Source of the DNA: a virus
Strand: one strand, 5' to 3'
DNA length: 64,000 nucleotides
IMG/VR virus record: IMGVR_UViG_3300035696_000012
Location: 69,217 to 133,216 of that record
Shown here piece by piece: positions 4,451 through 62,365 of the stretch. The stretch's first letter is position 1. Each line of letters starts with the position of its first letter. Below the pieces are notes generated by a model, which was not told the DNA's origin, did not search any database, and worked only from the letters and a program-made list of their open reading frames with translations. The position numbers and the translations under genes are program-made.

Positions 4451-7400
4451 CTAACTTATAATAACTATTGATGGATCTGGACAAACAGTATTTGTTGGTG
4501 GCGGGTTAGGAACACCAAGAATATTTTGTGCCTGTATAAAATTGACATATATTGGATTATTATTCCACCCAGCTTTTTTTAGATATACAGTTATTTCTAC
4601 TTTTGTATTAAGAGTTTGTTTTACTGGATCTTGATACAAATTTGTAAAATTCAATGTTAATAATCCAGTAGAATAGTTTATAGAAACACCTATTTTACCA
4701 TCAACTATAATACCAGAAATACATTGAGGATCAATTCCATCTAACATCGGAGAAAATGACTGTACAGAGGCACCAAATCTAATTTGATTTAAATTTAATG
4801 CATTTAATCCAACTGGTGTACAATCTGCAAATTTCATCGCCCTATACCCAAGATTTGTATATCCAGTACCTGAAACATCAGCAATAAAATCAGTTAGTAA
4901 ATTAATACTATGTTCAGTATCAAATGATACGTCTGGTATTTCTATCAAAATGGTTGATATTTCAAAATCCATTTTCATAAAATAACCATCTGGGCGTAAA
5001 AATTGTCCACCATTATTCACTATCAAATTATTTGATATGAAAAAGTCATTTCTACCTGGATCAAATGGTTGAGCTTGTGGGAAAACTTGCGATGTTACTC
5101 CTGGCGCATAACATTTTGGATTAACATAACCTGTTTGATAATTAAATGATGCTTGAACTAATCTTGGATTAGAATTAACAACGACAGATGATGAATCCCA
5201 TACTAATTGTTGCATCACACTAAATGGTAGTGGGTTTATTTGAACATTTTGATTTGCAAAAAAAGTGTACCCATCTAAAAATACATCTGGTAACGGATGT
5301 AATGTTGTTCCTCTATTTGTACCGTTTGATGGGTAATCATCATTTCTATCAATATATTTTTCTAATGTTAAACGAATAACATTAAATGATGTTCCTATTT
5401 TATTTGCAGGTGCCGTTGTAGCTGGCAATGGTTGAACGCCATTTATGTAATTTGTAATATAATTTAAATCAGTTGCATTAAAAATCAAATCACCATTTAT
5501 ATCAGATCTCATAATTTGTAAAATTGTATCTGATGTATAGTATTGTTTTTGAATCGTAATATCATTATTGTCTATTAAATTTATGATAGCGAATGATCCG
5601 TTGTTACCAGGACTTGTAACGGAATTCATTATAGATAATGAATTAGCGCCTAAATTTATTATACTATTAAAATTTGCAGAAGCGCTGCCAAAATTAGCCT
5701 GAGCGCCATTAGATGGATTTGGAACCAAAATACCATCGCTGCCCGATGCCAATACATTTAGATTTGGATCCAGTACTTGCCAATGTAAATATCCATCAGC
5801 TACAAATAGTTCTGTCTGTTGAATATATTGAGAATAACTTGGAATCACATTTAAATTTGCTCCAAGCAATGGTTGTGCTGCCAATAGATCGTTACCATCG
5901 ACTACACCATCACCATTTACATCGCCATACATCATGGATATTAATTCAGCCTTAGATATTTTATAATAAAAAGATGGATTAGCTGTGTTCGGTATTATTT
6001 TTGCACCATTTAAAGCACCAGTAACAAGCAGAGATACAAGTTCTATTATATTTTGATCATATCTATAACCATCTGTAGAATCTGTTATAACTTTCATAAC
6101 AAGCTGGTTACCAATCATTCCATATTCATGGAATGCTGCTGTTAGAGTTGAAGAAAACGCATTATATGTTTTAATATTTTGATCTGAGATAGTACCGAGT
6201 ATTAATGGCTCAGAAACATTCTGTATATTAGCAAGCGAGGCAGCATTCAATAATGAAATTGAAGGTACTAATTGCTGCTCAGTAAATACTGGTTCACCAG
6301 TTCGTTCACTCTGGACTTGATTACTATCTTGTGTTATAGCCTGGAATAATGCATAATATAAATCATTTCTAACAAACTGAATGTCATTTAAAACATAATC
6401 TTCCGTTAGTCCGGTTGTTGAATTTATTTGTGTTTTTGGAACAAATGCACCATTGCCGGCGTCATATGCTTGACCGTCGGATACTTTTGCTGCATCAGTC
6501 CATACCTGAAACCACAACGATTGTTCGGGAACATCTACCCATACACTACCATTAAATAACGTTTCCCAAGTATCTGAAGTACTGTTAGAACCAAGAGCTA
6601 ATTGTATTTGACAAGTATCTGCAGATCCAGCTCGTTTAACGGTAATAGCATAATAATTACCAGGTTGTATTACGAGACCAGAGCCAACAGGAGTATTGCT
6701 AAATATAAAATCAACAGGTTGAGAAACGGTATTTAATTGAATACCTGATGCTAAAAGAGTTGAATAATTCACACTTAATTGAGCCAATGGTATATTGGAT
6801 GGATCAAAATCTATTGGTGCTTGTGGTGTAATATCAGTTGGACAAGATACCGTTGATTGAAGCGGGTACAAACTTATTAATAAATCACCAGTCCATACTA
6901 AATTACTTGGAGTAGTATCATTAATTACAGAAAGAAGAAGTGTAATTTTTTGTATATTATTTGTGGAGACTAAAAATTTTTGTGCTACTTGAGAGCTTAC
7001 ATCATTTTCAACAATACTTGCATATGAAAGTGGCGCTATGTTGATATTTAAATTATCAATATTATAACTTGGTAAGGCTGCTGCCAATGTGCCCGCTAAC
7101 GTTGATCCGGTAGTAACAAAAAAATCTCTAAAAAATAGATTAGGCTCTATATCTTGTGATATCATAACACAATCTCGTGAGAGCGTAAGCGGATTTGCTT
7201 CTTTTATTGTTATAATTCCACCAAGATTTAATGATTGTGATGGAGCACCAATAAAATCATTAAATAAAAGAGTTAAAATTGATCTATAGTGTTTTGAACT
7301 TAATTGTTTTTCATTTCTATCAAATGTAAATCTATCATATTGTAAATTATTTTGAAAATCTAATCCTATAATTAATACTTTAACTGTTCTATTACCGGAA

Positions 7401-7684
7401 GCTTTTGATTCGCACAGTTCAATTTGTAATTGATTTCCATTATTACTATCTGATGGTTGTGATTGAATATTTATTGGTTTTCCGTCTAATAATCCATTAG
7501 CCGATTCTGAATTAAATAATACACGTTGAATTAATGAATCAGGTAATACACCTGAGCCAAAATGGCTATCGATGATTCCTGATTGTATTGTATTATCGTG
7601 TGTCTGCTCTAATGTTAAGTTGGTATTATCAACATTTTGGGTATCAAACCAGATATTTTGTGGGGCTGAAACTGGTATTCGCAT
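4451..7684 (-). CDS. Large baseplate/tail-associated structural protein with two dockerin/EF-hand-like Ca-binding loops
   Basis: 1077 aa, beta-rich; contains GDVNGDGVVDGNDL and SDINGDLIFNATDL; follows the baseplate wedge genes; SD AGGA. Confidence 0.55.
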   Translation of the reverse strand: MRIPVSAPQNIWFDTQNVDNTNLTLEQTHDNTIQSGIIDSHFGSGVLPDSLIQRVLFNSESANGLLDGKPINIQSQPSDSNNGNQLQIELCESKASGNRTVKVLIIGLDFQNNLQYDRFTFDRNEKQLSSKHYRSILTLLFNDFIGAPSQSLNLGGIITIKEANPLTLSRDCVMISQDIEPNLFFRDFFVTTGSTLAGTLAAALPSYNIDNLNINIAPLSYASIVENDVSSQVAQKFLVSTNNIQKITLLLSVINDTTPSNLVWTGDLLISLYPLQSTVSCPTDITPQAPIDFDPSNIPLAQLSVNYSTLLASGIQLNTVSQPVDFIFSNTPVGSGLVIQPGNYYAITVKRAGSADTCQIQLALGSNSTSDTWETLFNGSVWVDVPEQSLWFQVWTDAAKVSDGQAYDAGNGAFVPKTQINSTTGLTEDYVLNDIQFVRNDLYYALFQAITQDSNQVQSERTGEPVFTEQQLVPSISLLNAASLANIQNVSEPLILGTISDQNIKTYNAFSSTLTAAFHEYGMIGNQLVMKVITDSTDGYRYDQNIIELVSLLVTGALNGAKIIPNTANPSFYYKISKAELISMMYGDVNGDGVVDGNDLLAAQPLLGANLNVIPSYSQYIQQTELFVADGYLHWQVLDPNLNVLASGSDGILVPNPSNGAQANFGSASANFNSIINLGANSLSIMNSVTSPGNNGSFAIINLIDNNDITIQKQYYTSDTILQIMRSDINGDLIFNATDLNYITNYINGVQPLPATTAPANKIGTSFNVIRLTLEKYIDRNDDYPSNGTNRGTTLHPLPDVFLDGYTFFANQNVQINPLPFSVMQQLVWDSSSVVVNSNPRLVQASFNYQTGYVNPKCYAPGVTSQVFPQAQPFDPGRNDFFISNNLIVNNGGQFLRPDGYFMKMDFEISTILIEIPDVSFDTEHSINLLTDFIADVSGTGYTNLGYRAMKFADCTPVGLNALNLNQIRFGASVQSFSPMLDGIDPQCISGIIVDGKIGVSINYSTGLLTLNFTNLYQDPVKQTLNTKVEITVYLKKAGWNNNPIYVNFIQAQNILGVPNPPPTNTVCPDPSIVIIS

Positions 7685-7713
7685 TCTATATTCCTATGTA
7701 ATATACTAAAAAA

Positions 7714-10700
7714 TTAGAAGTAATTAATATATACTTGAGTGTTAGCTGGTTTAAGAGTATTTATCAATTCTTCTAAAACCTGTTTTACTACAGCATTATC
7801 TGCTAATATATCAAATGAATCATAAATGTTGATAGTAAAATCACTTAAACCAGTTGTACTATTTTTTAGAGTAGCAAAATTAGTATTTTTAGTAATAAGT
7901 GTATCAAAATCTAACAGCAATGTCGTATATAGATCTGGCGTTACTGGTAAAACTATATCTGTATTTGTACTATAATTAACATCTAATGATTCACCGAATG
8001 GCATAAATAATGGTCTTGATTGGTTACTTATACGTAAATTATCTATCAGTGCATAAGCTCCATTAGTACCAGAAAAATCTGATCCTATGAATAACTCGTT
8101 TATGGTATCCTTAAAAATTATGCTTGCTTGCATAGTATTTTGCCCAGTAAATGATGACCCGAATACCTGATTTTGACCATATAACAATCCATTTCCAAAC
8201 AACACGTTTCCTCTTTCATAACCATCAACAAAAAACCTAATTTCGTCGGATCCTAATCCAGAATTAACTTTAAATGTTGCCTTTAAACGGTGCCATGTGC
8301 CCTTAGACCAATAAGCCGGAGTTCTTATTTGATACACAATACCTGATGCAGTAACACTAAAATTAACATATCCAGATGGATCTTTAAATATCGATATTCT
8401 ATCTCCGTTAGTTCCGGTTGGAATATAATTAACAACAACAGGAGTTTGTTGATTTGGAAGGGCTCTATTTAAGTATAGAGTTTGCATATCATCTCCTATT
8501 GTACCACCAGCAAAATAATCAACATTTTGGTTTCCAACTTGTAACTTTACATTAAGTACCTGTGACACTCTTCCAGATACTTGAACAGTAGCATTATTTA
8601 TACTAACTACCTGCTGACTAACTATACCAGATGCATCAAAATAATATCTATAATTAGGATCATTGCCAGTATCATAAATTGGATTAATCCAAAACTCTAT
8701 TGTTCCTTCTTGTTTTGATGTTAAAATACCAGTATTATCTATTACCATTGGTTTATTGGTTAACACGATACTTTTGCCAAAATTATCATTAACACTAATT
8801 GATGATTGAATGAATTGATTAGAAGCAGTTGTATATATAGAAGAATCATTTGTAAATGGAAAAGAATCAAAATGAAGCAACATTGATGTATTAGCAGTTG
8901 GCTGTAATGCTTTTAATGAGTTAAAATCTTTTGTTATTGTTTCTTGATTAGCACCAACCATTTCACCAATTCTCACATCAGTTAATTTTTCAGATATGAT
9001 TGTTAATTCATCAATTATACCATTAAAAACATTATGTCCAGCGAAATCAGTACCAACATATGAATATAAATTAGTTAGATTCATAGGTATTGTTAAATAA
9101 GTATAATATTCAAATTGATACAATCCTTGAACTAAATTGTATGGTTGACCAGGTGTGGTTAAATTTTCCAAAATAAAATATCCGTTTTGAAGACCGCTCC
9201 TATATGTACTAACAGTTAATACTTCGTACACACCATCGGATGTAATAGGCGATGGTAATGCGGGAGTAATGTTTATGCTCTTATAATCTGATGAAACATC
9301 AGTTATTTGATATTGTCCGGCGCTTGCGGGCGGATATGTTATTACTAAATAGTTTCCGATTGTTTGTGATGAGAAAAAATTATTAGAATCTGTTACAGTA
9401 TTGCCACTACCAATTAAACTATTACCAACAACAGTTTGGTAACTATATCGTATTACAGGAACTGTTGTGCTATTTTCAGCAACAGTTATTGGATTAGCTT
9501 CCAAAATAGAAATGACAACACAATTTTGTGTTGGGTCAATTGGATTACAATTAACTACAACATAGTTTACGTTAGTAAACTGTGATATTGTTGACAAGGT
9601 GTCATTTTTTGTAAAAATTAATATTTCAGGTGAAGATGTATTATTTGTACCATAAATTGATACTGTTACTGGATTAGAATAATCTATATTAGTACCAGAT
9701 ATATATACAGACAATGTTCTACCATTGTCAGATATTGATGGCTGATCTGTCATTATATTATTAGATACGAAAACCCCGCCAATTAATGTTGAATTGACTG
9801 GACCAATATTATATCTATCAAGCAAAATATGAGTAATTTTTACGTCTGACAATAATATTGGTGATGGTAATCTTGTTTTTATTATATTTGCTGTGTTCCC
9901 CCAAATATAATATTTATGATTAATCAATCTATGATTTAAACCAAGAGTTCGTATTAACACAATATCATTTGGAAGAGCTTTATCTTTTATAGTTAATGTA
10001 ACTGTATCATCCGGGTTTCTTGTTATACTATAAGCTGGATGCAACGCTCTTAGACCAGGTATTTCCTGTTCTATATTAGGATATATAAAAAATGATGCAG
10101 ATGAATAACTCGCAGGCATTTTACTATTCAATATTAAATTTTGACCATTGACTCCTAATATAACATAGTTTTCGGCAAAACCGCTTTCCGTTATCCTGAT
10201 CAAATATCCAGGAACTACATCTTTCATCGAAAAATTGATTGATGCGGAGGTAACAATATTATACCCATCAATTATTTTTAAGTCTGTTCCATTTAAAGAT
10301 GAGTGCAATAATGATATTATAACATTTGGATACAAATCTATTTCTGTTAATACATTGAATGATGTTTTATTTATTGAAAATGAAGCGCCGGTCATAGACA
10401 ACGGCATAGGTGTTGCAAGCGTTAATGTATTACCATTAACATTTATAATTAAATATCCTGATGTAGAAAATCCTGGTTCCTCAATATAGATAGTCCCACC
10501 ATTTACAATACCATAAGCACTAAAATTTAATGATGATGTAACGTTATTTAAGCCAAGTGTTGTGACCAAATCTGTTGATGAAACAATTGCAGATGTAATA
10601 ATACCAACAATTTCTTCTGGATTAACTGTTCTAAACTTTTCATGCAAATATGTTTCAACATTACTGCCATACTTTATTATATTTGGTACTTCTTGTCCAT

Positions 10701-13700
10701 CAATGAATAAATGAAGCTCGTCTCTGTTATTTTTTGTGTTTATTGCCCAAGATGCAGCAACATGATGTTGCTGCCCAGCTAACCACGAAGAAATATCAGT
10801 ATCTACTGTGGAGTTTCTACCATCCTTATCAAATACACGAAAATTTAAGTACCCACTCTCGTCTTTATAAATAGAAAATCTATTATGATTTTTATCTTTA
10901 CCAAAATCAAATATATAATGGTGATAGTCAGCTATAAATGTTATACCCTGATGCACATTATTAATATTCGATATAGTATAAGATATACTATTATTAGCAC
11001 TAAATATTCTATCTGATGTTGGTTGAATATATTTTAAAGATTTTACATTATAAAAATTTCCATCTGTTTTAATTGAAACTTGATAGTTTTTTATTCCATA
11101 TCCATCAGCATATCCATCTAAAATATCAACATACCACCTATTTATATTGGTGTATGGATCATTTGCTATATATATAAATATCCCATCTTTACTTTTATTT
11201 GGTATTCCAATTGTGGAACTATTTTTATTTACTGAAAAAGAATATCCATCTAAAAATTCTGGATGATACGCGCTTGGTCCAAGAAAAACATTTTGTGGTA
11301 AAACTGATTGACCATTTTTTATTATTGTAAATGTTAATATAGATTGATTATCAATGCCATTCCAGTTAGGCTTGACCCAACATTCAAAAGAACCTTGTTC
11401 TAATCTAAGATTAGAAACTGTGGGAAATTTAATAATCTGTCCTGGAACATTCATTAGAACACCATTGTCATATCTTGCAGGAACCAATGAAAAAGAACCA
11501 GAAGTTGTAATTGGCTCTGGATTTAATAAATCACTTCCAAGTGACCAATTCTGAAAAGCAGATTCTATTATTTGTGGTGGTGTATGAACAATAGTATTAA
11601 CTATGTTACTCATAGAAGAAATTGTTGGTCCTTGTGGAAATGAACTCATTGCAGCTATGAGAGCATCCCTATACCTTTCTCTTTCAAATGAAACATCTAA
11701 ACTATTTAATATTGGTATATTTATTAGTGTACCAAAATTTTTAAGCAGAGCATCTCTTAATGCTCCAACTTTATAACTAACATAGTATGTATCACCTGGG
11801 CTCAATGCCATAGATTTACTAAAATCTAGCACATTATCACCATATTCATAACTAATAATTATTTCATCCACAAGATATGTATAATCTATATAATATCCAC
11901 CTTTGTCATAATCAACAATAACTCTATACAAATTATTTATTGTATATGAATAAATTAATTGAATGGCATCTCCAAGCTGCGGAGAATTAATGTTTGGTAA
12001 TATTAATTTAAATGGATTCCCTAAAATTATCATTCCAGAATTATCCCATAATTGAGCATTATCTGAAAGTCTAATTATTTGTATATTTAATGTAATATTT
12101 GGTGATAGATATTGTAGGGAATTATTAGCAAATACATAATAATTTGTACCATCGAATTGTATTGAATGGTATTCAGTAAATACCAATGAACCAACGGTTA
12201 TGTTTTTTCCATTAAATGTTGATGACTGTGAAAAATTAATTGGATTAATGTTATTTAATAAATCTTCATATTCATATAACCCTCGTATATAACCTATATA
12301 ATTTGATACCCCAGGAGAAAATATAGTATTTATGAAAGTACCAACTTGATTGTTATATACCTGATATGGATATTGAGTATTTCCATTTAAAAAACCTTCA
12401 TTTGCTACATCAAACGTAGATGGTAATATATTACCATCTGTAAAATTTACATATGAAAATTGTTTTGTTTTTTGTCCAGCAATACTTAATTGATAGTAAA
12501 TATCATCAACTGATATAAGATGAGGATTATTTGGTGTAATATAGCCTCGTTTATATGATATTGATCCAACAGAATATGATTGTGTTGATGATACATAACA
12601 CCATACTACACCATTAACATAATCTATTTCATAATCACCTATATTTTGTAATCTTGAAACATTTTGTGTCTGAGTTGATGAATTATCAAAATATATTTCT
12701 TGAATAAATATATTCATATTAGAAAATGATACACTTGAATTAAATGATGACCCTACCTCATCCTGAGAAGCTGAAATTATATTATTATTGTTTAAATAAA
12801 ACTTAAATATATTACCACCAGTAAGCGTCATTACTGCGCCAACTGAAAGAGTTTCATTCATAATATTTTGAAAAGATGCTCTCTCACTAGTTAAACTAAC
12901 TATATTAGGTGCTTTTACATAATTGAAAAATATTTGATTATTTGTCCATCTTAAAATACTATATACTTCACCAGTAGTTTGATTAAATATTCTAAATACA
13001 TCTGTGACTGGAAAATTTAATGGCTGTATAGTGTTTAAAGCAACAAGTCTATTATCTATGTATTCATTTAAAACTTCAATATGAGATGATGCAACATAAT
13101 CTATCCCTTGTGCTAAAACCTCTTCATAATTAAATATAATATTTGCTGATGAACCAATTAAGCTACCATTAGGCAATGCAACTAGTTCAAAACTATCTGA
13201 ATCATAAACATAATCTATTTCTGACTTAAAAACATATCTATATGTATATGTTGCCAGCGGAGGATACGCGCCCGTACCAGTTTTGTTGTTATCTTGTCCA
13301 TATACATAAACATTTCCAGAACTATAATCAACAGAATATTCACCAATTTGAGACGGTAAATAATCTAATCTAAATGGTAATTCATATAAAAATGCTGGAT
13401 GTGGTATATTTGATCCTGGTGGTTCATTTGGATCAGTAAATATAACACTACCTATACTACCAATAGCATCATTATTAGTTACTATTGGAGCATGCATTAA
13501 TGTGAAAGTATTTTCCAATGGTGGTAAAACTTCACGACCAGATGACAAAATTGTATCTACAATTAATGATGTCGGATCTAAAACTTTTCCAGTATTTTGG
13601 TATTGATATGTTACTTGAACATAAGCAATATTTTCCGTAGAAAAATTAGGATCATTTAATATACCTCTATTTAATATTACTTGATTATTTGCCAATAACT

Positions 13701-14574
13701 CATATGTAAATGAGTTATCAGGATCATATAATGAATTATATATTTGATATCCATATGTAGGAATATCATAATTATATGGAGGTAAAGATGAATCATATAC
13801 AAATAAAACACTATTTAATATAATGACAAAATTTTTGGTAAAATTAATTGTAAATGTATCTTGATTAAAGGTTCCAATTTTATCCACAGTAACAAGCGGT
13901 AAGTTTTCTGAATAACTTGCAGCTTGTAGTGAAACAGGATAGCTTGGAAATGATGGAATCGACGTAATATTTTGAACTGGATCACTAGTTGGGTTCATTC
14001 CAACTCTTAAAATTTCATACGCACTTTCTTCATTTAATCTATCATATGGACCATTGCCTCTGGTTTTAAATTCATCTATTATTGTTGTTGTTAAATAATT
14101 TTCATTTTTTGATTGTCTTATGGCATATAATGATTGTGAAAATACAGATGATAGTCCTTGTATATAACTTGATATAATGGATGGGCTATCTAAATTATAA
14201 ACATTATTTCTAAGAAAATTATTTAAATATATTTGTACTGGATTGCTCGAATCTAATGGGCCCAATATTAACTGACGATTAGTTATACCATCATTTAAAA
14301 TAAACGCATCACCATTTAATGAATTAAATGGCACTTGGTTAGTTGATTGGAAAGTTATAAAATATGCTGCTTGTGGTACTAACGGTTGAGTTGTTATATA
14401 TAATAAATTATCAGATACTGTAACAATCAGCACAGATGGGCTAGAGACTCCGGGTGTTTGAGCACTTATTGTAATATTAGTTGTATTTATATCTTCATTT
14501 AAATTTTCAGAAAACTTAGCAGTAATATTACTGCTATTTACAACTGTTATAGATATAATTCTTAAATTAGCCAC
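7714..14574 (-). CDS. Giant baseplate wedge protein (gpI/gp7-like position) with an N-terminal Ig-like and two LamG/ConA-like domains
   Basis: 2286 aa; GTG start overlaps the end of the J-like gene. RERYRDALIAAMSSFPQGPTISSM resembles tail protein I segments. LamG-type motifs GSFECWVKP/HHVAASW/LHLFIDG and GTIEFWINP/WHRLKATF/IRFFVDG. C-terminal VLEELINTLKPANTQVYINYF is a typical wedge ending. Confidence 0.6.
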   Translation of the reverse strand: MANLRIISITVVNSSNITAKFSENLNEDINTTNITISAQTPGVSSPSVLIVTVSDNLLYITTQPLVPQAAYFITFQSTNQVPFNSLNGDAFILNDGITNRQLILGPLDSSNPVQIYLNNFLRNNVYNLDSPSIISSYIQGLSSVFSQSLYAIRQSKNENYLTTTIIDEFKTRGNGPYDRLNEESAYEILRVGMNPTSDPVQNITSIPSFPSYPVSLQAASYSENLPLVTVDKIGTFNQDTFTINFTKNFVIILNSVLFVYDSSLPPYNYDIPTYGYQIYNSLYDPDNSFTYELLANNQVILNRGILNDPNFSTENIAYVQVTYQYQNTGKVLDPTSLIVDTILSSGREVLPPLENTFTLMHAPIVTNNDAIGSIGSVIFTDPNEPPGSNIPHPAFLYELPFRLDYLPSQIGEYSVDYSSGNVYVYGQDNNKTGTGAYPPLATYTYRYVFKSEIDYVYDSDSFELVALPNGSLIGSSANIIFNYEEVLAQGIDYVASSHIEVLNEYIDNRLVALNTIQPLNFPVTDVFRIFNQTTGEVYSILRWTNNQIFFNYVKAPNIVSLTSERASFQNIMNETLSVGAVMTLTGGNIFKFYLNNNNIISASQDEVGSSFNSSVSFSNMNIFIQEIYFDNSSTQTQNVSRLQNIGDYEIDYVNGVVWCYVSSTQSYSVGSISYKRGYITPNNPHLISVDDIYYQLSIAGQKTKQFSYVNFTDGNILPSTFDVANEGFLNGNTQYPYQVYNNQVGTFINTIFSPGVSNYIGYIRGLYEYEDLLNNINPINFSQSSTFNGKNITVGSLVFTEYHSIQFDGTNYYVFANNSLQYLSPNITLNIQIIRLSDNAQLWDNSGMIILGNPFKLILPNINSPQLGDAIQLIYSYTINNLYRVIVDYDKGGYYIDYTYLVDEIIISYEYGDNVLDFSKSMALSPGDTYYVSYKVGALRDALLKNFGTLINIPILNSLDVSFERERYRDALIAAMSSFPQGPTISSMSNIVNTIVHTPPQIIESAFQNWSLGSDLLNPEPITTSGSFSLVPARYDNGVLMNVPGQIIKFPTVSNLRLEQGSFECWVKPNWNGIDNQSILTFTIIKNGQSVLPQNVFLGPSAYHPEFLDGYSFSVNKNSSTIGIPNKSKDGIFIYIANDPYTNINRWYVDILDGYADGYGIKNYQVSIKTDGNFYNVKSLKYIQPTSDRIFSANNSISYTISNINNVHQGITFIADYHHYIFDFGKDKNHNRFSIYKDESGYLNFRVFDKDGRNSTVDTDISSWLAGQQHHVAASWAINTKNNRDELHLFIDGQEVPNIIKYGSNVETYLHEKFRTVNPEEIVGIITSAIVSSTDLVTTLGLNNVTSSLNFSAYGIVNGGTIYIEEPGFSTSGYLIINVNGNTLTLATPMPLSMTGASFSINKTSFNVLTEIDLYPNVIISLLHSSLNGTDLKIIDGYNIVTSASINFSMKDVVPGYLIRITESGFAENYVILGVNGQNLILNSKMPASYSSASFFIYPNIEQEIPGLRALHPAYSITRNPDDTVTLTIKDKALPNDIVLIRTLGLNHRLINHKYYIWGNTANIIKTRLPSPILLSDVKITHILLDRYNIGPVNSTLIGGVFVSNNIMTDQPSISDNGRTLSVYISGTNIDYSNPVTVSIYGTNNTSSPEILIFTKNDTLSTISQFTNVNYVVVNCNPIDPTQNCVVISILEANPITVAENSTTVPVIRYSYQTVVGNSLIGSGNTVTDSNNFFSSQTIGNYLVITYPPASAGQYQITDVSSDYKSINITPALPSPITSDGVYEVLTVSTYRSGLQNGYFILENLTTPGQPYNLVQGLYQFEYYTYLTIPMNLTNLYSYVGTDFAGHNVFNGIIDELTIISEKLTDVRIGEMVGANQETITKDFNSLKALQPTANTSMLLHFDSFPFTNDSSIYTTASNQFIQSSISVNDNFGKSIVLTNKPMVIDNTGILTSKQEGTIEFWINPIYDTGNDPNYRYYFDASGIVSQQVVSINNATVQVSGRVSQVLNVKLQVGNQNVDYFAGGTIGDDMQTLYLNRALPNQQTPVVVNYIPTGTNGDRISIFKDPSGYVNFSVTASGIVYQIRTPAYWSKGTWHRLKATFKVNSGLGSDEIRFFVDGYERGNVLFGNGLLYGQNQVFGSSFTGQNTMQASIIFKDTINELFIGSDFSGTNGAYALIDNLRISNQSRPLFMPFGESLDVNYSTNTDIVLPVTPDLYTTLLLDFDTLITKNTNFATLKNSTTGLSDFTINIYDSFDILADNAVVKQVLEELINTLKPANTQVYINYF

Positions 14575-17500
14575 TTGTGATACTTTCTTGAACTATCGAA
14601 ATTGTGTTAGCAACAAAATATTGATTCTCTTGAGCGGTTATTGTTAATACTTGACCAGCCGTTCCATCTACGTTAAAATACACAACACGAACACGCTCCA
14701 CACCATCAACAGCCTGTGCTGCTGAAATTAACATTGATGAACTTAATACACCTCCCAGTTGATTTGTATTAATTGTTGACGTGATAGCATTATTAACATT
14801 TTGTATAACTATAGCTGCCGAATTAGTTGAATCAGAGTTAATAACTATATTTAACGTAGCATCTATTAATAATTGTTTGGCTTCTTTAATTAAAACATCT
14901 GCTGTTATAGGTCTAGCCCCTTCAACAGTAAATGTTGTATTTGTTATTAGTGAATTATAGTTATAATTTATTAATATTCTTTCATTTTGTTTTGGAGCTA
15001 AGTAATCATAAAACGCAGTGTATCTTGAACCAGTTGCAGGTTGAGTAAAAAATGAAACAGTAAATCTTGCAGATTGAGATGTATTAAATCCGCTTGATGG
15101 ATACAATCTATTTAAGAAAGCAAACTTTTTATTTGTATATAATGTTCCATTTTTTGTAAAATACACGTTTTCACTATCATTATCAGTTGCATAATAGAAA
15201 GTAATCATTAATGAATCACCAAGATTTGGAGAATTATTTATATTATTAGTTGTTGATGGTAATGTAAATTGGGTATTTTGTAATGAAGGATTGGTTATCA
15301 TTTCATTAGCATATAATATATTATTATTTATTTCTGTTCCAAGTACATCATATGTTGCCAATGTACTAAGTACCTGATTTCCAGTTGTAACGCTGACTTT
15401 TTTAACACTAACTACTCGTGTGATATATGTATTTGATGGAATAGTTGCATTTGTTGTTAAATTAAGAAATGTTACAAATGCTGAAAGAGCATTTTGAGTT
15501 AAACCGCCATTAATAGCTGTAAATACAACGTTAGCAACCTGAGTTACTGTTGTACCAGATGCCGTTATTACACCAGAATTAGATATTTGATCTGTGACTG
15601 TTATCGACAATTTTGTTGGTGATTGATGTAGATTTTTATTACCAAATAATACTACGACCACAGCATCTCCTTGAGACGCTACAGCATTTGCTGGCAGATT
15701 TAAAACATTATTTACAGGATCTATAGTACCAGATGTGGTCCATAAATCAGTATTATTAGCGACTCCAATAACGCTAACCTGTGTGGCTTGTAAATTAGCA
15801 ATGGCTAATTGTATAGTTAATACATTACTTGATGTATTAATAGATGTTATACTATAATAACCTTTATTATTAATATTCACTGTGTTTATTAATTTCAATG
15901 ATTTACCAAGTAAATCATCTACTGAGGAAAAATTAAATGATATACTTGAGAAGGTTGCTACCGAAGAATTAGATGAAACAGATTGTATATAACCATCTGT
16001 ACCTGATGCTATTGACAACCCAGTTGTATTATCAATAACATTGAAAACCATATTATTTTCAACAATAAAATTATGTATTGGCACATAAAAATTATTAGTT
16101 GTAAAATTATATGATAGATTTTGAAAATCTGTTTTTATTATTTGATTTGTAAAAGTAAATGGCTGGAATCTTCTTATATCATCAGCAAAATACATAACTA
16201 AAACATTATCTCCAACTGCTGGAGAATTAAAACCAGAAAATATTAATTGATATTGCGTACCAGTATTAACAACTGTACCTGGAAAATCAATATTCCATAT
16301 TTCTTTATTAGAAACTAAATCTATAACCGATATAATTTGTGATTGTAATAGAGAAAAATCCGATGATGGTATACTTAATGTTATATAATTTTGATTTAAA
16401 TTATTTGATTGAATTGTTTGATTTTCTCTTTTGATGGTGTTTGAGCTTATATTGCTAGTTGACCCAGTATTAGTATTTAGTAAATACCCATTACCAGTTC
16501 TACTAATTGGTAATCCTGTTATTCCAACATTAACTAAATCTGGTAATGCAGCCAGATACGTTACATCTAAATATATAGATTGTGTGGGCGATGATATGTT
16601 AGATGCCGGTATAGTTATTTGATTTGAAGTAAAACTTCCAGTTGAATTAACAACATTAAATGAATCTTGTTGATTATATGTTATTGATAGTAAATCTCCA
16701 ATTACTGCTGATGTATCTGTTGGCAATATTATAGTTGTACTATATTTTAATTGTATTCCGACAACAATGCTATTATTAATAATAATACCATCATTTTGTG
16801 CTGTATTATATATTTCCTGGTTAGAATCGGTTAGTCTGATACTTTCTATAGAATTAATTGGATTATCTATTGGAGACAAAACTACCTGAAGTCTTGTTAA
16901 GAAATTTGCAACTGTTCCGGTAACAGCTATACCACGACTAAAACTAAAATAATTTGCAGATATTACAACTGATACTGGATGTTTTACCGTACCAATAAAA
17001 AGATTATTAGCAGTATTTAATGAAAATAAAACTCTTTCATTTCTAATAGCATTAGAAATACCCCAATCAACGCTATCAGAAATTGGTCTTGGATTATTAT
17101 TTAATAATTTACCATCATAGTCACTATATGGATCGTAACTATCAATCCAAGTATAATCAACCTGAAGTATATCGCTTGATGCTGGCAATGTATTACCGCT
17201 TATTTGTATTTGACCAGTAGTATTTGTACTTCCGGTATTATCTAAATTTTGATTTATTATCGTATAAGTTTCACCAGTATTAACATTAAATACCCTTGTT
17301 ACATTTGTAGCTGGCGTATGTAATAATTGAATAATAGAACTATCACTGCTTGAAACTATACTATTTTCGCTAATTATAGATATACTCTGTTGAACTTTTG
17401 GTATATCAATAACATCTGAATATGTTGTTGCATCTTGACCATTAAATTTTGATTTAACTCTATCTTCTTGAAATAATGATATTTTATTTGATACCCAATG

Positions 17501-29967: not shown

Positions 29968-29997
29968 TTATATTCCTCTTACATTATATATCATTAA

Positions 29998-34293: not shown

Positions 34294-34320
34294 TCCCGCA
34301 ATATATAATATATCGCGGGA
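34294..34320 (-). terminator. Probable intrinsic terminator after the tail tube gene
   Basis: Minus strand tcccgc-gatatattatatatt-gcggga: a 6 bp GC stem extended by an AT stem, followed by tttgtgtttt; about 20 nt after the tube stop. Confidence 0.55.
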
Positions 34321-34339
34321 AAATTATGTTTTAGTTTTA

Positions 34340-45607: not shown

Positions 45608-46006
45608 CTACGATTGATTTGGATTTAAAATGATATTTAAAAATGATATTGATTGATTTTCTAAATCTGTTTTAGATATTTTTGCTAATGATTCTATTAA
45701 TCTATAATGAGTACTTCCATCAAACTTATATGGAGTATGTCCACTATATACCTCATCAACCACTATGCACGGTTCGTTACCGTTCGTAAGATCTAAACAT
45801 AAAGAAATATTTACCAAATTAGGAAATGGTAGCGGTATAATAACCTCTGTTTCTGGCACAAAATATGTGGTAGAAGTCATTGTGGCGTAGCCATCACTAA
45901 TAGTTAAATGATAGCCATCAACGTGATACCCATCATATGTGCATGTTAAATTCAATGAATTAATTGATGCATTAAGTGTATAAACATTTTTATATGTAAC
46001 AATCAT
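45608..46006 (-). CDS. Hypothetical beta-rich protein with a triple DGY motif
   Basis: 132 aa; TYDGYHVDGYHLTISDGYAT; SD AGGA. Confidence 0.6.
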   Translation of the reverse strand: MIVTYKNVYTLNASINSLNLTCTYDGYHVDGYHLTISDGYATMTSTTYFVPETEVIIPLPFPNLVNISLCLDLTNGNEPCIVVDEVYSGHTPYKFDGSTHYRLIESLAKISKTDLENQSISFLNIILNPNQS

Positions 46007-50231: not shown

Positions 50232-50239
50232 ATTATATC

Positions 50240-51208: not shown

Positions 51209-52126
51209 TTAAAATATTTGGCGCGCACGCAGGTGGCGAAGACGCTGTAATTGCGGATTCATTGCACCAGCGCTTGCGATAGTTAATGTTCCAAGGCCAT
51301 GCGGGCTGGGGCGCATTGAATTCTTAATATATTTAAGCTTATCATAGTATTGAGTTAACATTGTGCTATATTGTGTTTCTAACAACTCTGCAACACTTGG
51401 AGGAGTAAAACTAACCCCATTATCATTTATCGAATATTCACGACCACGTTCAATTAACGCTTGACTTGCTAGCGCCATCAACACAGCACCATCAACTAAT
51501 ATAGCATGAAATTGATTAATAATCAATGTATCTTCCCATGTGAAGTATGTAAAATATGGTATTTGATTAAACTCACTCAATGCATTTACAACAAATGTTG
51601 TTATCATATCAGCAGAAAATATATCACAATTTACATAAATTGTATTACCATATTGATCTTGGCTTTGTGCTAATCCACTATTATTTAATCGTGCCTTTAC
51701 GGTTTTAGCTACTTTATTGATATTACGAATAGCAAGTTGGGAAAAGTTAAACCCCGGATCGTCCATTAGATGAACGTAACCATCACTATTAATCGATGGG
51801 AGTTCTGTAAATACGACAACAAACTGAAGTGAATTACTTATGACATTACCATTCAATGTTCCTTGCCATATGTCATTCCATACACCATATGGACCATTGA
51901 ATGGAGTCGTAAAATTAAATTGATATAAACCTACATCTAATTGCATAACTCCGGCTGTGGTTGGTCCGACAACTATTAATCCAGACGGAGCTCCTATTGT
52001 GACGGACGGAAAACTATCTAAATTGGTAGGTACTCCGGCAGCATTAGTAAATTGTGCTGTTAATTGAACCGTTTCATTAACGTTAATTAATTGATTACGA
52101 GTAGTTAAAGTTGTTAAACCAGCCAT
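51209..52126 (-). CDS. Head-tail adaptor/neck protein with an N-terminal Ig-like domain
   Basis: N-terminal beta-sandwich (VQLTAQFTN...GLYQFNF...GVWNDIWQG); C-terminal helical adaptor-like part (ILVDGAVLMALASQALIERGREYSINDNGVSFT); near the head closure gene. Confidence 0.6.
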   Translation of the reverse strand: MAGLTTLTTRNQLINVNETVQLTAQFTNAAGVPTNLDSFPSVTIGAPSGLIVVGPTTAGVMQLDVGLYQFNFTTPFNGPYGVWNDIWQGTLNGNVISNSLQFVVVFTELPSINSDGYVHLMDDPGFNFSQLAIRNINKVAKTVKARLNNSGLAQSQDQYGNTIYVNCDIFSADMITTFVVNALSEFNQIPYFTYFTWEDTLIINQFHAILVDGAVLMALASQALIERGREYSINDNGVSFTPPSVAELLETQYSTMLTQYYDKLKYIKNSMRPSPHGLGTLTIASAGAMNPQLQRLRHLRARQIF

Positions 52127-54567: not shown

Positions 54568-56538
54568 TTAGAGTTGAACTGGGGTTAGGATACGAATAAC
54601 CATTTGAGTTGAACTTAACATGAACCCAACTGGTGCTACGACTTGACCGACAGTTGTTGGCGCAGTGGCAGTTACTTTACCTGCGTTTGCTGGATCTAGA
54701 TACATTACGTTACCTGGAGAAGCTGAACCAGTAATGTTTGGGGTAACTAGACCGTCTGTATATAGGTTACCAGATGCTGTCTTATCTTTTGCGAAACCCG
54801 CACAATATGCAGTTGAAAGGCTGTTAGCCTCGGCGGATGATACAGCTAGAGAACCTGATACATATACTGCATCATTAGCTGCACCTACAGCAGAAGTATT
54901 TACACCAGTAACGGTGATTTCTTCTGTACCAGAAGATGATGTTGCAATGATCTGACCGCCAGAAGCAGCTTCTAGTGTAATACCTGATGGAACGGTGATT
55001 ACGTTGCTAGATACTGTACCAACTTGTAGGTAGTTAGAACCACCTACTTGTAGGTTGGTACCACCGGCACCATTGATTGTCAATACATCAGAACCACCTG
55101 ATTGTAATGTTTGTGTTTGTAGGTAATAACCATCTGCCACTGTTACATCACCATCAAATAGTGCATTTGATTGGAATGTTGAAGTACCAACGATTGTTTC
55201 TGCACCATCGACCATCAAATTACCTTTGACTTCGAAGTTGCCAGCAGCTTGTGTTACTGTTAGTACACCTGATGCATTGATGTAACCATCACCTGATAGA
55301 GTGTTCCATGTTGCAGGAGCGCTTCCTTGTGCAATTAGAAGTTGTGCACTTGAACCAGCTGACGAAGTAAGAACACCAGAACCATTTACTTGAACTGTAC
55401 CCCAGTTAGTAAGTGGTGTTGTGATATTACCAGATGATACTGTTAGACCGTTGCTTGCAGTCAAAAGACCAGTTGATGTAAGTGTGCTAGATGCTGTAGT
55501 GGCACCAGTTAGTGTATTTGCACCTTGTGATGTTTTGAATGTACCAGTTGAACCAGAGAAATCGAAATTAGGATTATTTCCAGTTGTAACGTTACCGTTG
55601 ATTGTATTGGTACCTGTACCAGTTGTAAAACTACCTGTACCATCGATTGTTAGATTGCCAGAACCAGCTGCACCCACTGTAAAGTTACCTTGTGCACTTA
55701 CGACTGTAACTGCGCCAGTTGCTGAGATAGTTGCATCTTGTGATACTGTGGTCCAAGCTGCTGCTGGAGTTCCGTTAGTTAGAAGAACTTGACCAGCTGT
55801 GCCAGGAGTAATATCATTAGTAACATTGATTAGGCTTGTTGATAGAAGACCTGATGCATTATTATGAACAACACCGGCTGTATTGAATGCATGGACTGTA
55901 ACGGAAGTTGAACCGGTAAATGTTGTATTACCATTTACAGATACTGCACCTGATGATGTTTGGAACGTACCTGTTGATGAATGGAAATCAAATGCACTTG
56001 TACCAGTAGCGGCAACAAAATTAGTGTTGTTAACTAATGTTACGGCGCCAGTTGTCATAGTTCCAACATCTAAATATGTGGTACCAGCCATTGCTAAATT
56101 AAGACCAGCTGTACCGCTTACAGTTAGAACACCAGCTGATGTCGACCAAGTTGAATCTGATGCTGCTGTAATTGTTAGAGCACCAGCAGTTGTACTTAGT
56201 TGTGAAGCAGCATTACCAGTTAGTGAGAATGCACCGCCTGATTGTGTTAGTGCACCACCTAGTGTAGTTAGACCAGTTCCAACTGTAAATGTATTTGAAC
56301 CAGTTACTGATGTAGCACCGTTTAGTGATACGGCACCTGTACCAGTTGAAAATGTTTGTGCACCTGGCATTGATGTATTTTGATTTAGTGTAATACTTGT
56401 TGCAGTTGTTGCACCGATAGATAGTGCACCTGCTGCATCGGCATCAATACCATTACCGACTAAAAGTTGATTTGTAGATTGAATTTGAGTTGTAACACCT
56501 GATTGAATTGTTAGAGCGCGAAATTGAGATCCAGACAT
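54568..56538 (-). CDS. Gly/Thr/Ser-rich fibre with a C-terminal capsid-decoration-like (DUF2190-type) domain
   Basis: 656 aa of short beta repeats (FTTGTG, FQTSSGA); C-terminal DAVYVSG...AGFAK...YTDGLV...GNVMYLDP...GKVTATAPTT-GQVVAPVGF is paralogous to the 56893 gene; strong codon bias. Confidence 0.6.
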   Translation of the reverse strand: MSGSQFRALTIQSGVTTQIQSTNQLLVGNGIDADAAGALSIGATTATSITLNQNTSMPGAQTFSTGTGAVSLNGATSVTGSNTFTVGTGLTTLGGALTQSGGAFSLTGNAASQLSTTAGALTITAASDSTWSTSAGVLTVSGTAGLNLAMAGTTYLDVGTMTTGAVTLVNNTNFVAATGTSAFDFHSSTGTFQTSSGAVSVNGNTTFTGSTSVTVHAFNTAGVVHNNASGLLSTSLINVTNDITPGTAGQVLLTNGTPAAAWTTVSQDATISATGAVTVVSAQGNFTVGAAGSGNLTIDGTGSFTTGTGTNTINGNVTTGNNPNFDFSGSTGTFKTSQGANTLTGATTASSTLTSTGLLTASNGLTVSSGNITTPLTNWGTVQVNGSGVLTSSAGSSAQLLIAQGSAPATWNTLSGDGYINASGVLTVTQAAGNFEVKGNLMVDGAETIVGTSTFQSNALFDGDVTVADGYYLQTQTLQSGGSDVLTINGAGGTNLQVGGSNYLQVGTVSSNVITVPSGITLEAASGGQIIATSSSGTEEITVTGVNTSAVGAANDAVYVSGSLAVSSAEANSLSTAYCAGFAKDKTASGNLYTDGLVTPNITGSASPGNVMYLDPANAGKVTATAPTTVGQVVAPVGFMLSSTQMVIRILTPVQL

Positions 56539-56892: not shown

Positions 56893-57444
56893 TTACAGTT
56901 GAATAAAATCCTCATCGATTTCAATAACTAATGTTGTTGAATTTTTTGCAAAACCAATTTTTTGAACTACATTTCCGCCAGTTGTTGGAGCAGTTGTTGT
57001 CATTGTTCCATCGACTAATCCTAAGTAGTATATCGCTCCAACGCTCAATCCTGAGAATGAACTGTTCTCTCCTTCCAATTGTACGACGCATTGCGTTGAT
57101 GAACTCTTTGACAAGACTATTCCTATTGCCAATTTAGTTGCATCAGTTGCATTTGCCAACCCAACCGTACTAGCAGAAGAAAGATATACCACGTTACCAA
57201 CAATAGCTGATGATACACATGTATAATTACCATAACCATCTGAACCAAGACTACTTATTGGTTGTTGTGGTTTCCATTGACTTGAAGAAGCATCCCATGT
57301 TAAAACTTGACCATCGGTTGGTGTTATGGTTGATATTGCATTTCCTTGGATTTTAGTAACGGTGACATTGGTGGTTGTTCCGCTTGCGTCCCCGCCAAGC
57401 GAACCGCCACCTCCTCCCGTCGGAATAATGAGAAAGCCACTCAT
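56893..57444 (-). CDS. Short fibre/capsid decoration protein (DUF2190-like C-terminus)
   Basis: N-terminal LGGDASGT...VTKIQG...PTDGQVLTWD fibre motif; C-terminal GNVVYL...ANAT...AIGIV...GLSVGAIYYL...TTTAPTT-GNVVQKIGFA. Confidence 0.6.
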   Translation of the reverse strand: MSGFLIIPTGGGGGSLGGDASGTTTNVTVTKIQGNAISTITPTDGQVLTWDASSSQWKPQQPISSLGSDGYGNYTCVSSAIVGNVVYLSSASTVGLANATDATKLAIGIVLSKSSSTQCVVQLEGENSSFSGLSVGAIYYLGLVDGTMTTTAPTTGGNVVQKIGFAKNSTTLVIEIDEDFIQL

Positions 57445-60483: not shown

Positions 60484-61344
60484 TTATGGCTTATACTGTA
60501 ATTTACACTGATCATATCCCTGCTGTAAAAGCAAGCGCATCGTAGCGTTGTCAAATGACAACGAGCTATTTGGAAGATCCGATGATGGTCGAATGATTTT
60601 TACATTCAAAAACTTCTTATCTGGTTGGAGACCAGCAGATACTAGCTTATTATACATAAACATCATTTTGATATCTGATTGAACCATTTGATCTGTCATA
60701 TAATCAAAACAACGAAGACCATATGTTACAACATCAACATCATTGAAAGATGATGATGGCATTTTTGGTCCGCATAAAACTATATCTAAATCTGTCGCGC
60801 CCATTGCAATTGCTTCATTGATTGGAGTTGAGTGACGAACTCCGCCATCTGTATATTTGATTCCATTAATTACGATAGGAATTAATCCCATTGGAAATGA
60901 ACTCGACGCAAGTATAGAATCTATAAAATACCCATCATCTTGCGTGAATGTATGATATTTACCCGTGCATATTTCTGTTGCTGAAACCGCTACCTTGTTG
61001 CCAGATGCACGTATTTTATCGAGACTAATATGGTTATGAACAAGATCTATAAGCGGTTGTGAATTATATACTGAATCTGACCATAATCCCTTTACAATAT
61101 TCCACGGACACCAGTTTTTCTTTACGGTTGAATCTTGTATATTATACCATAAATTATACAATGCCTGATATCCTAATTTCTGATCCGCTGGTGCATACTG
61201 AGCCATCCAAGATGCATTTAGCGCACCAACTGAAACGCCAGTAAATAATTGGTATGTGTTACCAAGATCTTCGAAAAGATATTTTAATGCCCCACATTGA
61301 AAACTACCAGCACTCCCGCCACCAGATAAAACTAATGCTCGCAT
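60484..61344 (-). CDS. Patatin-like phospholipase (copy A)
   Basis: SGGGSAG, GVSVG and DGG motifs; start likely ATG 61344 (MRALVL) behind GGGAG. Confidence 0.9.
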   Translation of the reverse strand: MRALVLSGGGSAGSFQCGALKYLFEDLGNTYQLFTGVSVGALNASWMAQYAPADQKLGYQALYNLWYNIQDSTVKKNWCPWNIVKGLWSDSVYNSQPLIDLVHNHISLDKIRASGNKVAVSATEICTGKYHTFTQDDGYFIDSILASSSFPMGLIPIVINGIKYTDGGVRHSTPINEAIAMGATDLDIVLCGPKMPSSSFNDVDVVTYGLRCFDYMTDQMVQSDIKMMFMYNKLVSAGLQPDKKFLNVKIIRPSSDLPNSSLSFDNATMRLLLQQGYDQCKLQYKP

Positions 61345-61381
61345 ATGTACTCCCTGCAATCATACTGGTATATTGGTCGAT

Positions 61382-62365
61382 TTAAGTATTTTTTGTACGA
61401 GCTACTGTAAGTACCCACGTTACTTGTAGTCCAACGTGTCCAGAATTAGTTATAATAACCATATGCATCCATTGCGGTAATACCTTGCGTGGTATCAATG
61501 CAGGTATAACTAAATCAATAGCATTGGAACCATTCATTTGATATTTTGTAACTGGATGCGTAAGATTCAATTGCACCGTGTATAAATCATATGCGCCACG
61601 CTGAATTGCGTTTGGAACAATTGTTCCTTTACCAACTCCTGTTGATGGAGCTGACCAATCCCAAAAACCAGTGCCAGTTAAATTTGGAACCGGTACTGCC
61701 TGTGTTAAATCCACCGAGTTGTTTGTATTGACCCCTGGAACTATAAGAACACTACCTGGACCAACCAAATTAACATTTCCTGTTCCGCTAACCGTTGTTA
61801 CAGTTGTTGCTGGTGCATAAATCCAATAATCTATATAATCTCCAACAACTGCGTTGGCATATATTATTTGACCACCTGCAAGATATAGGTAATCATTATG
61901 ACCCCAAGTAACTGTATGCTCAGTTAAATACCCATCATCACTTGTATGTGTAAAAGGAGTTCCCATACCATTACCAAGAGTAGGATCATCTCCGGCACCA
62001 ATTATTGTCATTTGAACGTTAGCAGAGAACAATGTTGGGAGAGTATTGGGTCTGCCATCCGCCGATCTAGGAATAGTTGATGCATTACCATTTGGCATAT
62101 AATTAGTTAAGAAATCAGTAACATCTAGGTCATTTTGAGTCTGTGAATAATCTGGATCGAATGGAAACCCAGGAGAATTAGTCGTAAAAATAAGAATTGA
62201 TTTGTATGCTATATTTTGATCAAAAGCAAATACGCAATAACCATCAACTTGCACAACATATTGAACGGTAATGTTTTTACTAACAATGATTTGTTTAAAA
62301 TCTAACCATCGTAATGTTACGACCGCTGGACTATTGAATTGTACCTGTTGAGTATATGACATCAC
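61382..62365 (-). CDS. Hypothetical structural protein, about 327 aa
   Basis: Beta-rich, Gly/Thr/Pro-rich; AAGGGA upstream; two DGY. Confidence 0.55.
   Translation of the reverse strand: MMSYTQQVQFNSPAVVTLRWLDFKQIIVSKNITVQYVVQVDGYCVFAFDQNIAYKSILIFTTNSPGFPFDPDYSQTQNDLDVTDFLTNYMPNGNASTIPRSADGRPNTLPTLFSANVQMTIIGAGDDPTLGNGMGTPFTHTSDDGYLTEHTVTWGHNDYLYLAGGQIIYANAVVGDYIDYWIYAPATTVTTVSGTGNVNLVGPGSVLIVPGVNTNNSVDLTQAVPVPNLTGTGFWDWSAPSTGVGKGTIVPNAIQRGAYDLYTVQLNLTHPVTKYQMNGSNAIDLVIPALIPRKVLPQWMHMVIITNSGHVGLQVTWVLTVARTKNT

Follow-up and report, generated by a model that had tools for sequence, protein, structure and literature searches.

A lineage-specific Asp-Gly-Tyr motif on the outward-facing tail proteins of huge phages, linked to glycosyltransferase genes

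The general O-glycosylation system of the Bacteroidota, e.g., that of Tannerella forsythia, reads the bare motif D-(S/T)-(A/I/L/V/M/T) (PMC8550257). A tripeptide of comparable make-up, Asp-Gly-Tyr (DGY), recurs in the tail genes of a 64,000-nucleotide stretch of viral DNA, hereafter the window, which is the right-hand 64 kb of the 133,216-bp IMG/VR contig IMGVR_UViG_3300035696_000012 (G000; about 34% GC). Both motifs consist of three bare residues with Asp first, include a hydroxyl residue, and are spread over many unrelated surface proteins. In the Bacteroidota the acceptor is Ser/Thr at position 2, and a single glycosylation system carries out the transfer outside the cytoplasm. The DGY motif has Tyr at position 3 after Gly, is viral, and would be read during assembly in the cytoplasm, with a glycan that is hypothetical. 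DGY is a real, lineage-specific surface motif that is linked to glycosyltransferase genes; in the outward-facing proteins of this phage and its relatives it exceeds chance about six- to tenfold. Full-text literature searches for the DGY motif, Asp-Gly-Tyr, and phage tyrosine glycosylation returned nothing relevant.

Other described systems resemble this arrangement in part. The N-glycosylation sequon of Campylobacter, D/E-X-N-X-S/T, is used by the periplasmic oligosaccharyltransferase PglB. Like DGY it is short, has an acidic residue upstream of the acceptor, is placed in exposed flexible turns, and disfavors adjacent Pro, but the N-linkage, the periplasmic oligosaccharyltransferase, and the other residues set it apart. 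The S-layer proteins of Paenibacillus alvei and Thermoanaerobacter(ium) are tyrosine O-glycosylated and provide the bacterial precedent for O-glycans on tyrosine. They differ in that the transfer takes place outside the cytoplasm by an O-oligosaccharyltransferase and is non-viral, and to our knowledge no DGY consensus exists in them.

Among viruses, mycobacteriophage virions are reportedly glycosylated by phage glycosyltransferases, with capsid and tail-tube subunits modified, in the account of Freeman et al. from 2023, to which PMC11256854 alludes. There, as in the DGY-bearing phage, phage-encoded glycosyltransferase genes adjoin structural genes, and the mycobacteriophage enzymes modify virion proteins inside the cell. 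The target sets differ: the tail tube lacks DGY (0/94 Asp-Gly dipeptides, DG), the fragment has no capsid gene, and the candidate targets of a hypothetical modification would be the outer tail, neck, and fibers. We know of no DGY-type sequon in the glycosylated mycobacteriophages. The major capsid protein of chlorovirus PBCV-1 is glycosylated at non-canonical sites by virus-encoded cytoplasmic glycosyltransferases. It is a parallel for virus-encoded, host-independent glycosylation with its own acceptor rules, but PBCV-1 is a eukaryotic virus with N-linked Asn glycans, and the phage GT4 resembles its enzymes at the level of the generic GT-B fold. Tripeptide ligands of the RGD type lie on exposed loops of animal-virus capsids, once per receptor-binding protein. 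DGY is likewise a bare tripeptide with a central Gly on surface loops that would be read by a partner; unlike RGD, it is spread over dozens of sites on the sheath, neck, and baseplate.

The first-pass annotation of the window had counted about 36 DGY among about 130 DG, where 5-6 were expected. A recount over 44 non-overlapping open reading frames (ORFs; 20,863 aa) gives 36 DGY among 134 DG, with identical counts per protein. Tyr constitutes 4.09% of the residues, which corresponds to 5.5 expected DGY and a 6.5-fold enrichment, and a first-order Markov model expects 7.4 (z = 10.5). DGY is by far the strongest tripeptide bias in the window, and the runners-up with real counts reach z values of about 4-5. 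The whole 133-kb contig contains 59 DGY, compared with 6.3 ± 2.5 and a maximum of 17 in 2000 within-protein shuffles. The shuffles, which had been proposed as a check, and the Markov model rule out composition as the cause.

The corresponding DNA pattern GAYGGNTAY is present 59 times in the coding frame of the contig and 0-3 times in each of the five other frames. The D and Y codons at these sites mirror genome usage. Because the sites are confined to the coding frame and their codons vary, selection acts on the DGY peptide and not on a DNA site, in agreement with the earlier claim, and a DNA-level motif is ruled out. The Gly of DGY is encoded by GGG in 10/59 cases versus 6.4% of all Gly codons (p = 0.004), a mild excess that may be noise.

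The bias is specific to the order and identity of the three residues. Asp precedes 41% of all GY dipeptides. The window contains 6 NGY (7.5 expected), 5 DGF (6.0 expected), and no DGW; EGY, DGI, DGV, and DGW are all at or below expectation, and DGY alone is enriched. The permutations DYG, GDY, GYD, YDG, and YGD occur 4-15 times each genome-wide, with 7.3 expected. A generic Asp/Asn-Gly β-turn, in which Asn would serve for Asp and other aromatic or β-branched residues for Tyr, does not describe these counts. The flanks show no longer consensus, and Pro is avoided at +1. A hidden repeat domain is ruled out by this lack of consensus together with the heterogeneous contexts. Copies may be clustered, as in DGYDGY, DGYADGY, and a group of three DGY within 16 residues. 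In the manner of a short linear motif, DGY is common to many proteins with otherwise unrelated folds. The tyrosine corner of Greek-key β-sandwiches has Tyr after a Pro-Gly-containing turn, with an LxPGxY-type consensus, and is found within β-sandwich domains. It was rejected as an explanation, as DGY has Gly directly before Tyr, lacks the L-x-P context, and is found in non-sandwich folds too.

The distribution of DGY separates outer from inner parts of the virion (Table 1). In the window, 33 of the 87 DG of outer proteins are DGY, compared with 0/19 in the inner-tail block (Fisher p = 6e-4). The block comprises the 673-aa and 1648-aa hub-region proteins, the tube initiator, the tape measure, the 102-aa and 215-aa proteins, and the 208-aa tube. 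Relatives have a match to PF26461 (Phi812 tail tube) in the gene that comes after the sheath. Just upstream of the window, at 43-70 kb, lie genes for replication, nucleotide metabolism, lysis, and sugars; they have 0 DGY in 43 DG (p = 2e-7), so that the split also holds in the proposed comparison with the non-structural part of the genome. The DGY-rich proteins in the other half of the contig are of the tail-fiber type, with a gp34-like N-terminal module and Gly_rich_2 domains. Pooled over about 50 related genomes, whose orthologues are not phylogenetically independent, the inner-tail families (tube, tape measure, tube initiator, hub-region, and small proteins) contain 1 DGY in 566 DG, and 26-57% of the DG are DGY in the sheath, terminator-position, neck, and 1638-aa families. 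Given this lack of independence, the zero and near-zero counts are read as absence, and active avoidance is not claimed.

The same partition exists within the sheath. Its DGY sites are confined to the variable insertion domains in the middle of the protein, between residues ~50 and 610. Residues 700-927 form the conserved C-terminal domain, which matches sheath families and which we take to be the inner layer; it has 0 DGY in 142 DG. The window counts, the pooled homologues, and the sheath thus all bear out the exterior/interior split that had been noticed at first, and they support the conclusion that DGY marks outward-facing virion parts and is lacking from inner-tail and non-virion proteins. 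The Ig-repeat protein had been listed as an outer-type exception, and it does lack DGY. Its gene sits between the last fiber gene and the GT4 gene and is absent from this place in the three other genomes of the clade that were inspected (G008, G003, and G002). It is a lineage-specific insertion, which accounts for the lack of DGY, as expected for a recent acquisition.

The motif is restricted to a clade. Homologues of the neck and sheath proteins number in the hundreds and come from metagenomic contigs that reach 480 kb; IMG/VR contains 455 sheath relatives. The relative nearest to the contig, a record of 406 kb, has a sheath that is 93% identical. The 133-kb contig is therefore part of a huge-phage genome of about 400 kb. 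All 52 related loci that were counted (each at least 12 kb, with 29-45% GC) are DGY-rich, with 482 DGY in 2004 DG versus 73 expected (6.6-fold), independent of GC. T4 virion proteins, which are encoded by a genome of similar AT content, contain 5 DGY in 67 DG with 2.9 expected. Two outgroups with the same gene order and with 45%- and 38%-identical sheaths have 0/16 and 0/41, respectively. In a sister clade (sheath ~1066 aa, contigs of up to 335 kb), 107/1811 DG are DGY, i.e., 5.9% versus 3.4% expected, which is similar to T4. A general property of AT-rich myophage tails is ruled out by T4 and the two outgroups, and the comparable tails of T4, the outgroups, and the sister clade lack the motif or stay near baseline.

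The trait is graded and not all-or-none, because two complete genomes of the sister clade show a mild DGY enrichment over their entire tail modules (~3-fold, z ~4). No alternative motif stood out in the sister clade. Some very distant large sheaths (1100-1470 aa) carry 3-5 DGY, and this suggests a patchy distribution.

DGY sites are conserved at homologous positions, and new ones keep arising. Sheath site 417 is DGY in 113/116 homologues, and site 122 of the terminator-position protein is kept in 42/45 relatives. Among the 120 sequences of the neck family (identity of 48% or more), retention of the five DGY ranges from 64 to 95%, with four sites at 86% or higher and one retained in 114 sequences; average Asp and Tyr positions are retained in ~66%. 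The 1638-aa family has a median of 5 DGY per protein over 46 alignment columns, five common and 41 rare. The sheath family has 16-19 DGY positions in 116 homologues, many of them rare and lineage-specific. Conservation at homologous positions, one of the checks proposed at the outset, is thus found, and the alignments show that DGY, once present, is under purifying selection and that it has been gained repeatedly. In distant sheaths, site 417 is DGT, DGQ, DGV, or DGA. The Asp-Gly turn at this site is therefore older than the clade, and the Tyr is a novelty of the clade.

The substitutions at DGY columns differ from those at other tyrosines. Where the Tyr is replaced, the new residue is Ser/Thr in 61% and Phe/Trp/His in 5% of cases. 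At other conserved tyrosines of the same proteins, 67-72% of the replacements are aromatic and 1% are Ser/Thr. Since Ser/Thr take its place and Phe almost never does, the DGY tyrosine appears to behave as an exposed hydroxyl residue and not as a packed aromatic. The pattern would fit a hydroxyl acceptor and would equally fit a merely exposed turn position. At sheath residue 59 (window ~37588-37596), most relatives have NPT, NST, NSS, or DPT in place of DGY; another short polar motif thus occupies this exposed position.

The 535-aa neck protein carries an FN3 domain at its N-terminus, HxH motifs at its C-terminus, and a Cys4 ribbon. In structure it is closest to the neck proteins of phages 812, Pam3, and T4. 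In its AlphaFold model (predicted local distance difference test, pLDDT, 79), the DGY sites are in loops, strand edges, or loop-to-strand transitions. Distinct from the DGY sites, a segment of the FN3 domain (LVPGTLY) resembles a tyrosine corner. Four Cys residues (C336, C338, C350, and C353) are invariant, as are three HxH pairs at the C-terminus (H488/H490, H514/H516, and H529/H531). The HxH pairs resemble the metal-binding HxH of T4-type tail fibers, and by this analogy the neck protein may end in a short fiber. The neck homologue of a 150-kb relative (L008:9104-12412) has a ~420-aa insertion exactly within the conserved Cys4 ribbon, between ...RCxxCF and GTG..., which ends in ...VHNC and, from its sequence, looks like an intein with a homing-endonuclease domain.

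A sugar cassette directly follows the last DGY-rich fiber gene, apart from the Ig-repeat insertion. Its first gene encodes the GT4 glycosyltransferase, orthologues of which are present after the last fiber gene in 13/13 clade records (44-82% identity). After GT4, and upstream of the window, the cassette comprises a GT2 (PF00535, E = 7e-19), a 337-aa protein, a second GT2, and a nucleoside diphosphate (NDP)-sugar epimerase/dehydratase. The two GT2 genes (GT2a and GT2b) are found in the DGY-rich clade only, in 12/13 records. GT4 has a weak match to the PBCV-1 glycosyltransferase B736L (3oy2, E = 0.004).

The 337-aa protein (L004:17156-18202, genome 67156-68202) is encoded just upstream of the window and is clade-restricted, with 96 homologues. 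A long helix or membrane anchor at its N-terminus precedes a C-terminal all-β domain, whose long strands end in ...VGF. Its AlphaFold model (pLDDT 85) has no PDB match. As it is membrane-anchored and all-β with no solved relative, it is unlikely to be a cytoplasmic enzyme, and the model suggests that it may be associated with a membrane or the outer membrane.

The sugar genes after the fiber operon vary between lineages in a way similar to O-antigen clusters. In two sister-clade records (G014:C1:171574-185061 and G016:C1:84906-94303), GT4 is followed by more than 10 co-oriented genes of 250-510 aa. This run includes a second GT4-like gene and presumably represents a larger glycan-synthesis cluster. 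In a 394-kb relative (G005:C1:165178-166286, the record of L059), GT4 looks broken, with the C-terminal part in another frame and 2 TGA and 1 TAG codons. Either recent pseudogene formation or an error in the assembly could account for this; the locus around the sheath of this record is among the most DGY-rich (15/44 DG). A total of 77 genes are present in DGY-rich genomes but not in the sister clade, which in a single phylogenetic contrast is too many to name a DGY partner. In one of these genomes (G008, the record of L027), the Pfam matches among genes without a BLAST match in the sister clade include an NTP-transferase (sugar-nucleotide synthesis) and a sugar C-methyltransferase (PF08484), and also an RmlD-like reductase, a trigger-factor-like protein, and a papain-like peptidase.

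Taken as a mechanism, Tyr would be selected directly after Asp-Gly β-turns on outward-facing tail parts, i.e., the sheath insertion domains, the terminator-position protein, the neck, the baseplate rim, and the fibers, and it would matter as an exposed hydroxyl and not as a packed aromatic. The most likely role of DGY would be that of a recognition site for one common partner, because one bare tripeptide recurs on unrelated folds and arises at new positions. The favored, hypothetical partner is a cytoplasmic enzyme that would modify the Tyr hydroxyl during virion assembly, and the most plausible case would be O-glycosylation begun by the conserved GT4. On the sequence evidence, an enzymatic modification of the DGY tyrosine, with glycosylation leading, is put forward tentatively, with a probability that falls somewhat short of even. 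We infer that every DGY site is exposed, that the partner exists, and that it acts by this chemistry. A narrower and more doubtful proposal is that DGY would be the acceptor sequon of a new cytoplasmic tyrosine O-glycosylation, in which GT4 primes, the variable sugar genes give lineage-specific glycans, and the exterior of the tail, neck, and fibers acquires a sugar coat.

Several observations weigh against glycosylation by the cassette. Full-length GT4 orthologues (31-35% identity) are present at the same position in 10/12 sister-clade records, and these include sheath neighborhoods in which DGY is at baseline (2-3% of DG). The presence of GT4 thus failed as a discriminator. Of the co-occurrence of DGY with glycosyltransferase clusters that had been proposed, the conserved linkage holds in the clade, but the level of DGY does not follow the presence of GT4. 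The complete 446-kb genome G002 has neither of the two GT2 genes and nevertheless stays DGY-rich (23 DGY versus 5.2 expected in 80 kb), and the candidacy of GT2a or GT2b as the writer is thereby weakened. If the cassette writes on DGY, only GT4 can prime, and its acceptor preference must differ between clades. The similarity of GT4 to solved structures is only that of a generic GT-B enzyme. Ser/Thr are a common default after Asp-Gly in exposed turns, so that the substitution pattern points to exposure more firmly than to an acceptor role. Several DGY sites are 86-97% conserved, above average residues, which would also fit individually structural sites. The pooled counts carry the phylogenetic dependence noted above.

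A non-covalent surface function is possible but rather unlikely. DGY would then provide many weak binding patches for glycans of the host envelope or the environment, or a docking peptide for a small decorating or assembly protein. The pairing of an Asp carboxylate with a Tyr ring and hydroxyl is known from sugar-binding sites and antibody paratopes. The distribution, exposure, and hydroxyl evidence apply to this function equally, as does the presence of DGY on many unrelated outer proteins without a longer consensus. DGY also persists whichever glycosyltransferases a genome has, and tandem or clustered copies would suit multivalent binding. However, the strict order and residue specificity, with NGY, EGY, and the permutations unenriched, are unusual for generic stickiness, no candidate partner protein was identified, and DGY is also found on the neck and terminator proteins, far from the receptor-binding end.

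A structural micro-motif without any reader, in which the Tyr after an Asp-Gly turn stabilizes hairpins or subunit contacts, is less likely again. Its merits are the greater age of the Asp-Gly turns relative to the Tyr, the near-invariance of sites such as sheath 417, terminator 122, and the best-kept neck site, and the loop-to-strand transitions in the neck model. It would have to accommodate new DGY sites at non-homologous positions. A purely structural role is also hard to reconcile with the data because Asn-Gly turns do not attract Tyr and Phe is no substitute, because homologous tails of the same fold do without DGY (none in the outgroups, about baseline in the sister clade and T4), and because the equally β-rich tube, hub-region proteins, and inner sheath domain lack it.

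Another tyrosine chemistry is improbable. It might harden the outer tail through oxidative Tyr-Tyr or Tyr-X cross-links, or consist of phosphorylation or nucleotidylation by a phage or host enzyme. The requirement for a Tyr hydroxyl and the outside exposure would agree with it, and replacement by Ser/Thr would suit a hydroxyl-directed transferase but misfits dityrosine. No kinase, Fic, tyrosinase, or peroxidase family was found among the scanned proteins of the contig or the clade-specific genes, in a scan that was partial. An artefact of composition, DNA signal, hidden repeats, or ORF calling can be dismissed in view of the shuffles, the coding-frame restriction, the heterogeneous contexts, the unrelated folds, and the hundreds of independent metagenomic contigs.

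The features of the window are listed in Table 1. Family searches identified a contractile tail module with sheath, gp6/J-like wedge, gp25-like protein, tape measure, and, weakly, tube initiator. These labels of the first-pass annotation stand, along with two patatin-like proteins, the GIY-YIG endonuclease, the Ig-repeat protein, and the neck ('head closure') fold, whereas 'tailspike', 'decoration fibre', 'Zn finger', 'hub', and 'spike' were not confirmed. The 263-aa protein would be the tail terminator, judging by gene order only. The 1077-aa protein has no Pfam or PHROG family match, and its homologues in G008, G003, and G002 have 4-7 DGY. Homologues of the 2286-aa protein have 5-8 DGY. A family search found none for the 713-aa protein. 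The G002 homologue of the 305-aa protein keeps one DGY. At window positions 58761-61359 (-), two paralogous patatin-like genes flank a GIY-YIG/NUMOD3 homing endonuclease, and DGY is present only in the copy at 60484-61359.

Table 1. Positions, assignments, and DGY content of the features of the window; pooled counts are those of the families in related genomes.
Feature	Position	Strand	Assignment	DGY residues (DGY/DG)	Pooled DGY/DG
GT4 glycosyltransferase	2..790	(-)	GT-B; C-terminal two-thirds of 374 aa		
1205-aa Ig-repeat protein	827..4444	(-)	10 Big_3_5 domains	none (0/7)	
1077-aa protein	4451..7684	(-)	outer baseplate/fiber type	538, 630, 804, 899 (4/11)	
2286-aa protein	7714..14574	(-)	baseplate periphery/fiber	1109, 1153, 1157, 1436, 2117 (5/13; DGYADGY)	
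1363-aa protein	14567..18658	(-)	baseplate wedge, gp6/J-like; phrog_6, E = 4e-42	888 (1/7)	
713-aa protein	20811..22952	(-)	baseplate region	444, 624 (2/4)	
Inner-tail block	23000..34966	(-)	DGY-free block	none (0/18; 0/19 with the 553-aa protein at 19150-20811)	
1648-aa protein			hub region		0/227
Tube initiator					0/101
Tape measure					1/57
102-aa protein					0/11
215-aa protein					0/76
Tube					0/94
927-aa protein	34981..37764	(-)	tail sheath; phrog_23; PF17482/PF04984 on homologues	59, 417	97/371
263-aa protein	37920..38711	(-)	tail terminator position, directly upstream of sheath	122	50/87
80-aa protein	38714..38956	(-)		61, 77 (2/2; second three residues from C-terminus)	
364-aa protein	38961..40055	(-)		113 (1/6)	
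1638-aa protein	40055..44971	(-)	neck/fiber region	279, 624	243/636
132-aa protein	45608..46006	(-)		25, 30, 38 (three within 16 residues)	
859-aa protein	46014..48593	(-)		78 (1/4)	
535-aa protein	48624..50231	(-)	neck (stopper/head-completion fold)	20, 184, 187, 228, 290 (5/10)	43/88
305-aa protein	51209..52126	(-)		115	
656-aa protein	54568..56538	(-)		417, 469 (2/6)	
183-aa protein	56893..57444	(-)		69	
Patatin-like phospholipase copy A	60484..61359	(-)	PF01734, E = 1e-25	142	
327-aa protein	61382..62365	(-)		41, 144	

The findings that are new here are the Tyr-to-Ser/Thr signature, the partition within the sheath, the greater age of the Asp-Gly turns relative to their Tyr, the DGY-free outgroups of the same gene order, and the natural loss of both GT2 genes in a DGY-rich genome. 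DGY is a sequence-only marker that distinguishes outer from inner tail parts among the unannotated proteins of huge phages. Its positions indicate where the chemistry of the virion surface may influence host range, defense evasion, and environmental persistence, and DGY could be tried as a short tag for site-directed protein decoration. If DGY is read, it would constitute a three-residue code for the protein surfaces that end up outside the huge-phage particle. As a sequon-like motif it would have no described precedent among phage virions, and it might also represent the first tyrosine-linked modification in a virus. Even if the function is non-covalent, the selection of a strictly ordered tripeptide for dozens of exposed turns, across several hundred related metagenomic contigs, needs explaining.

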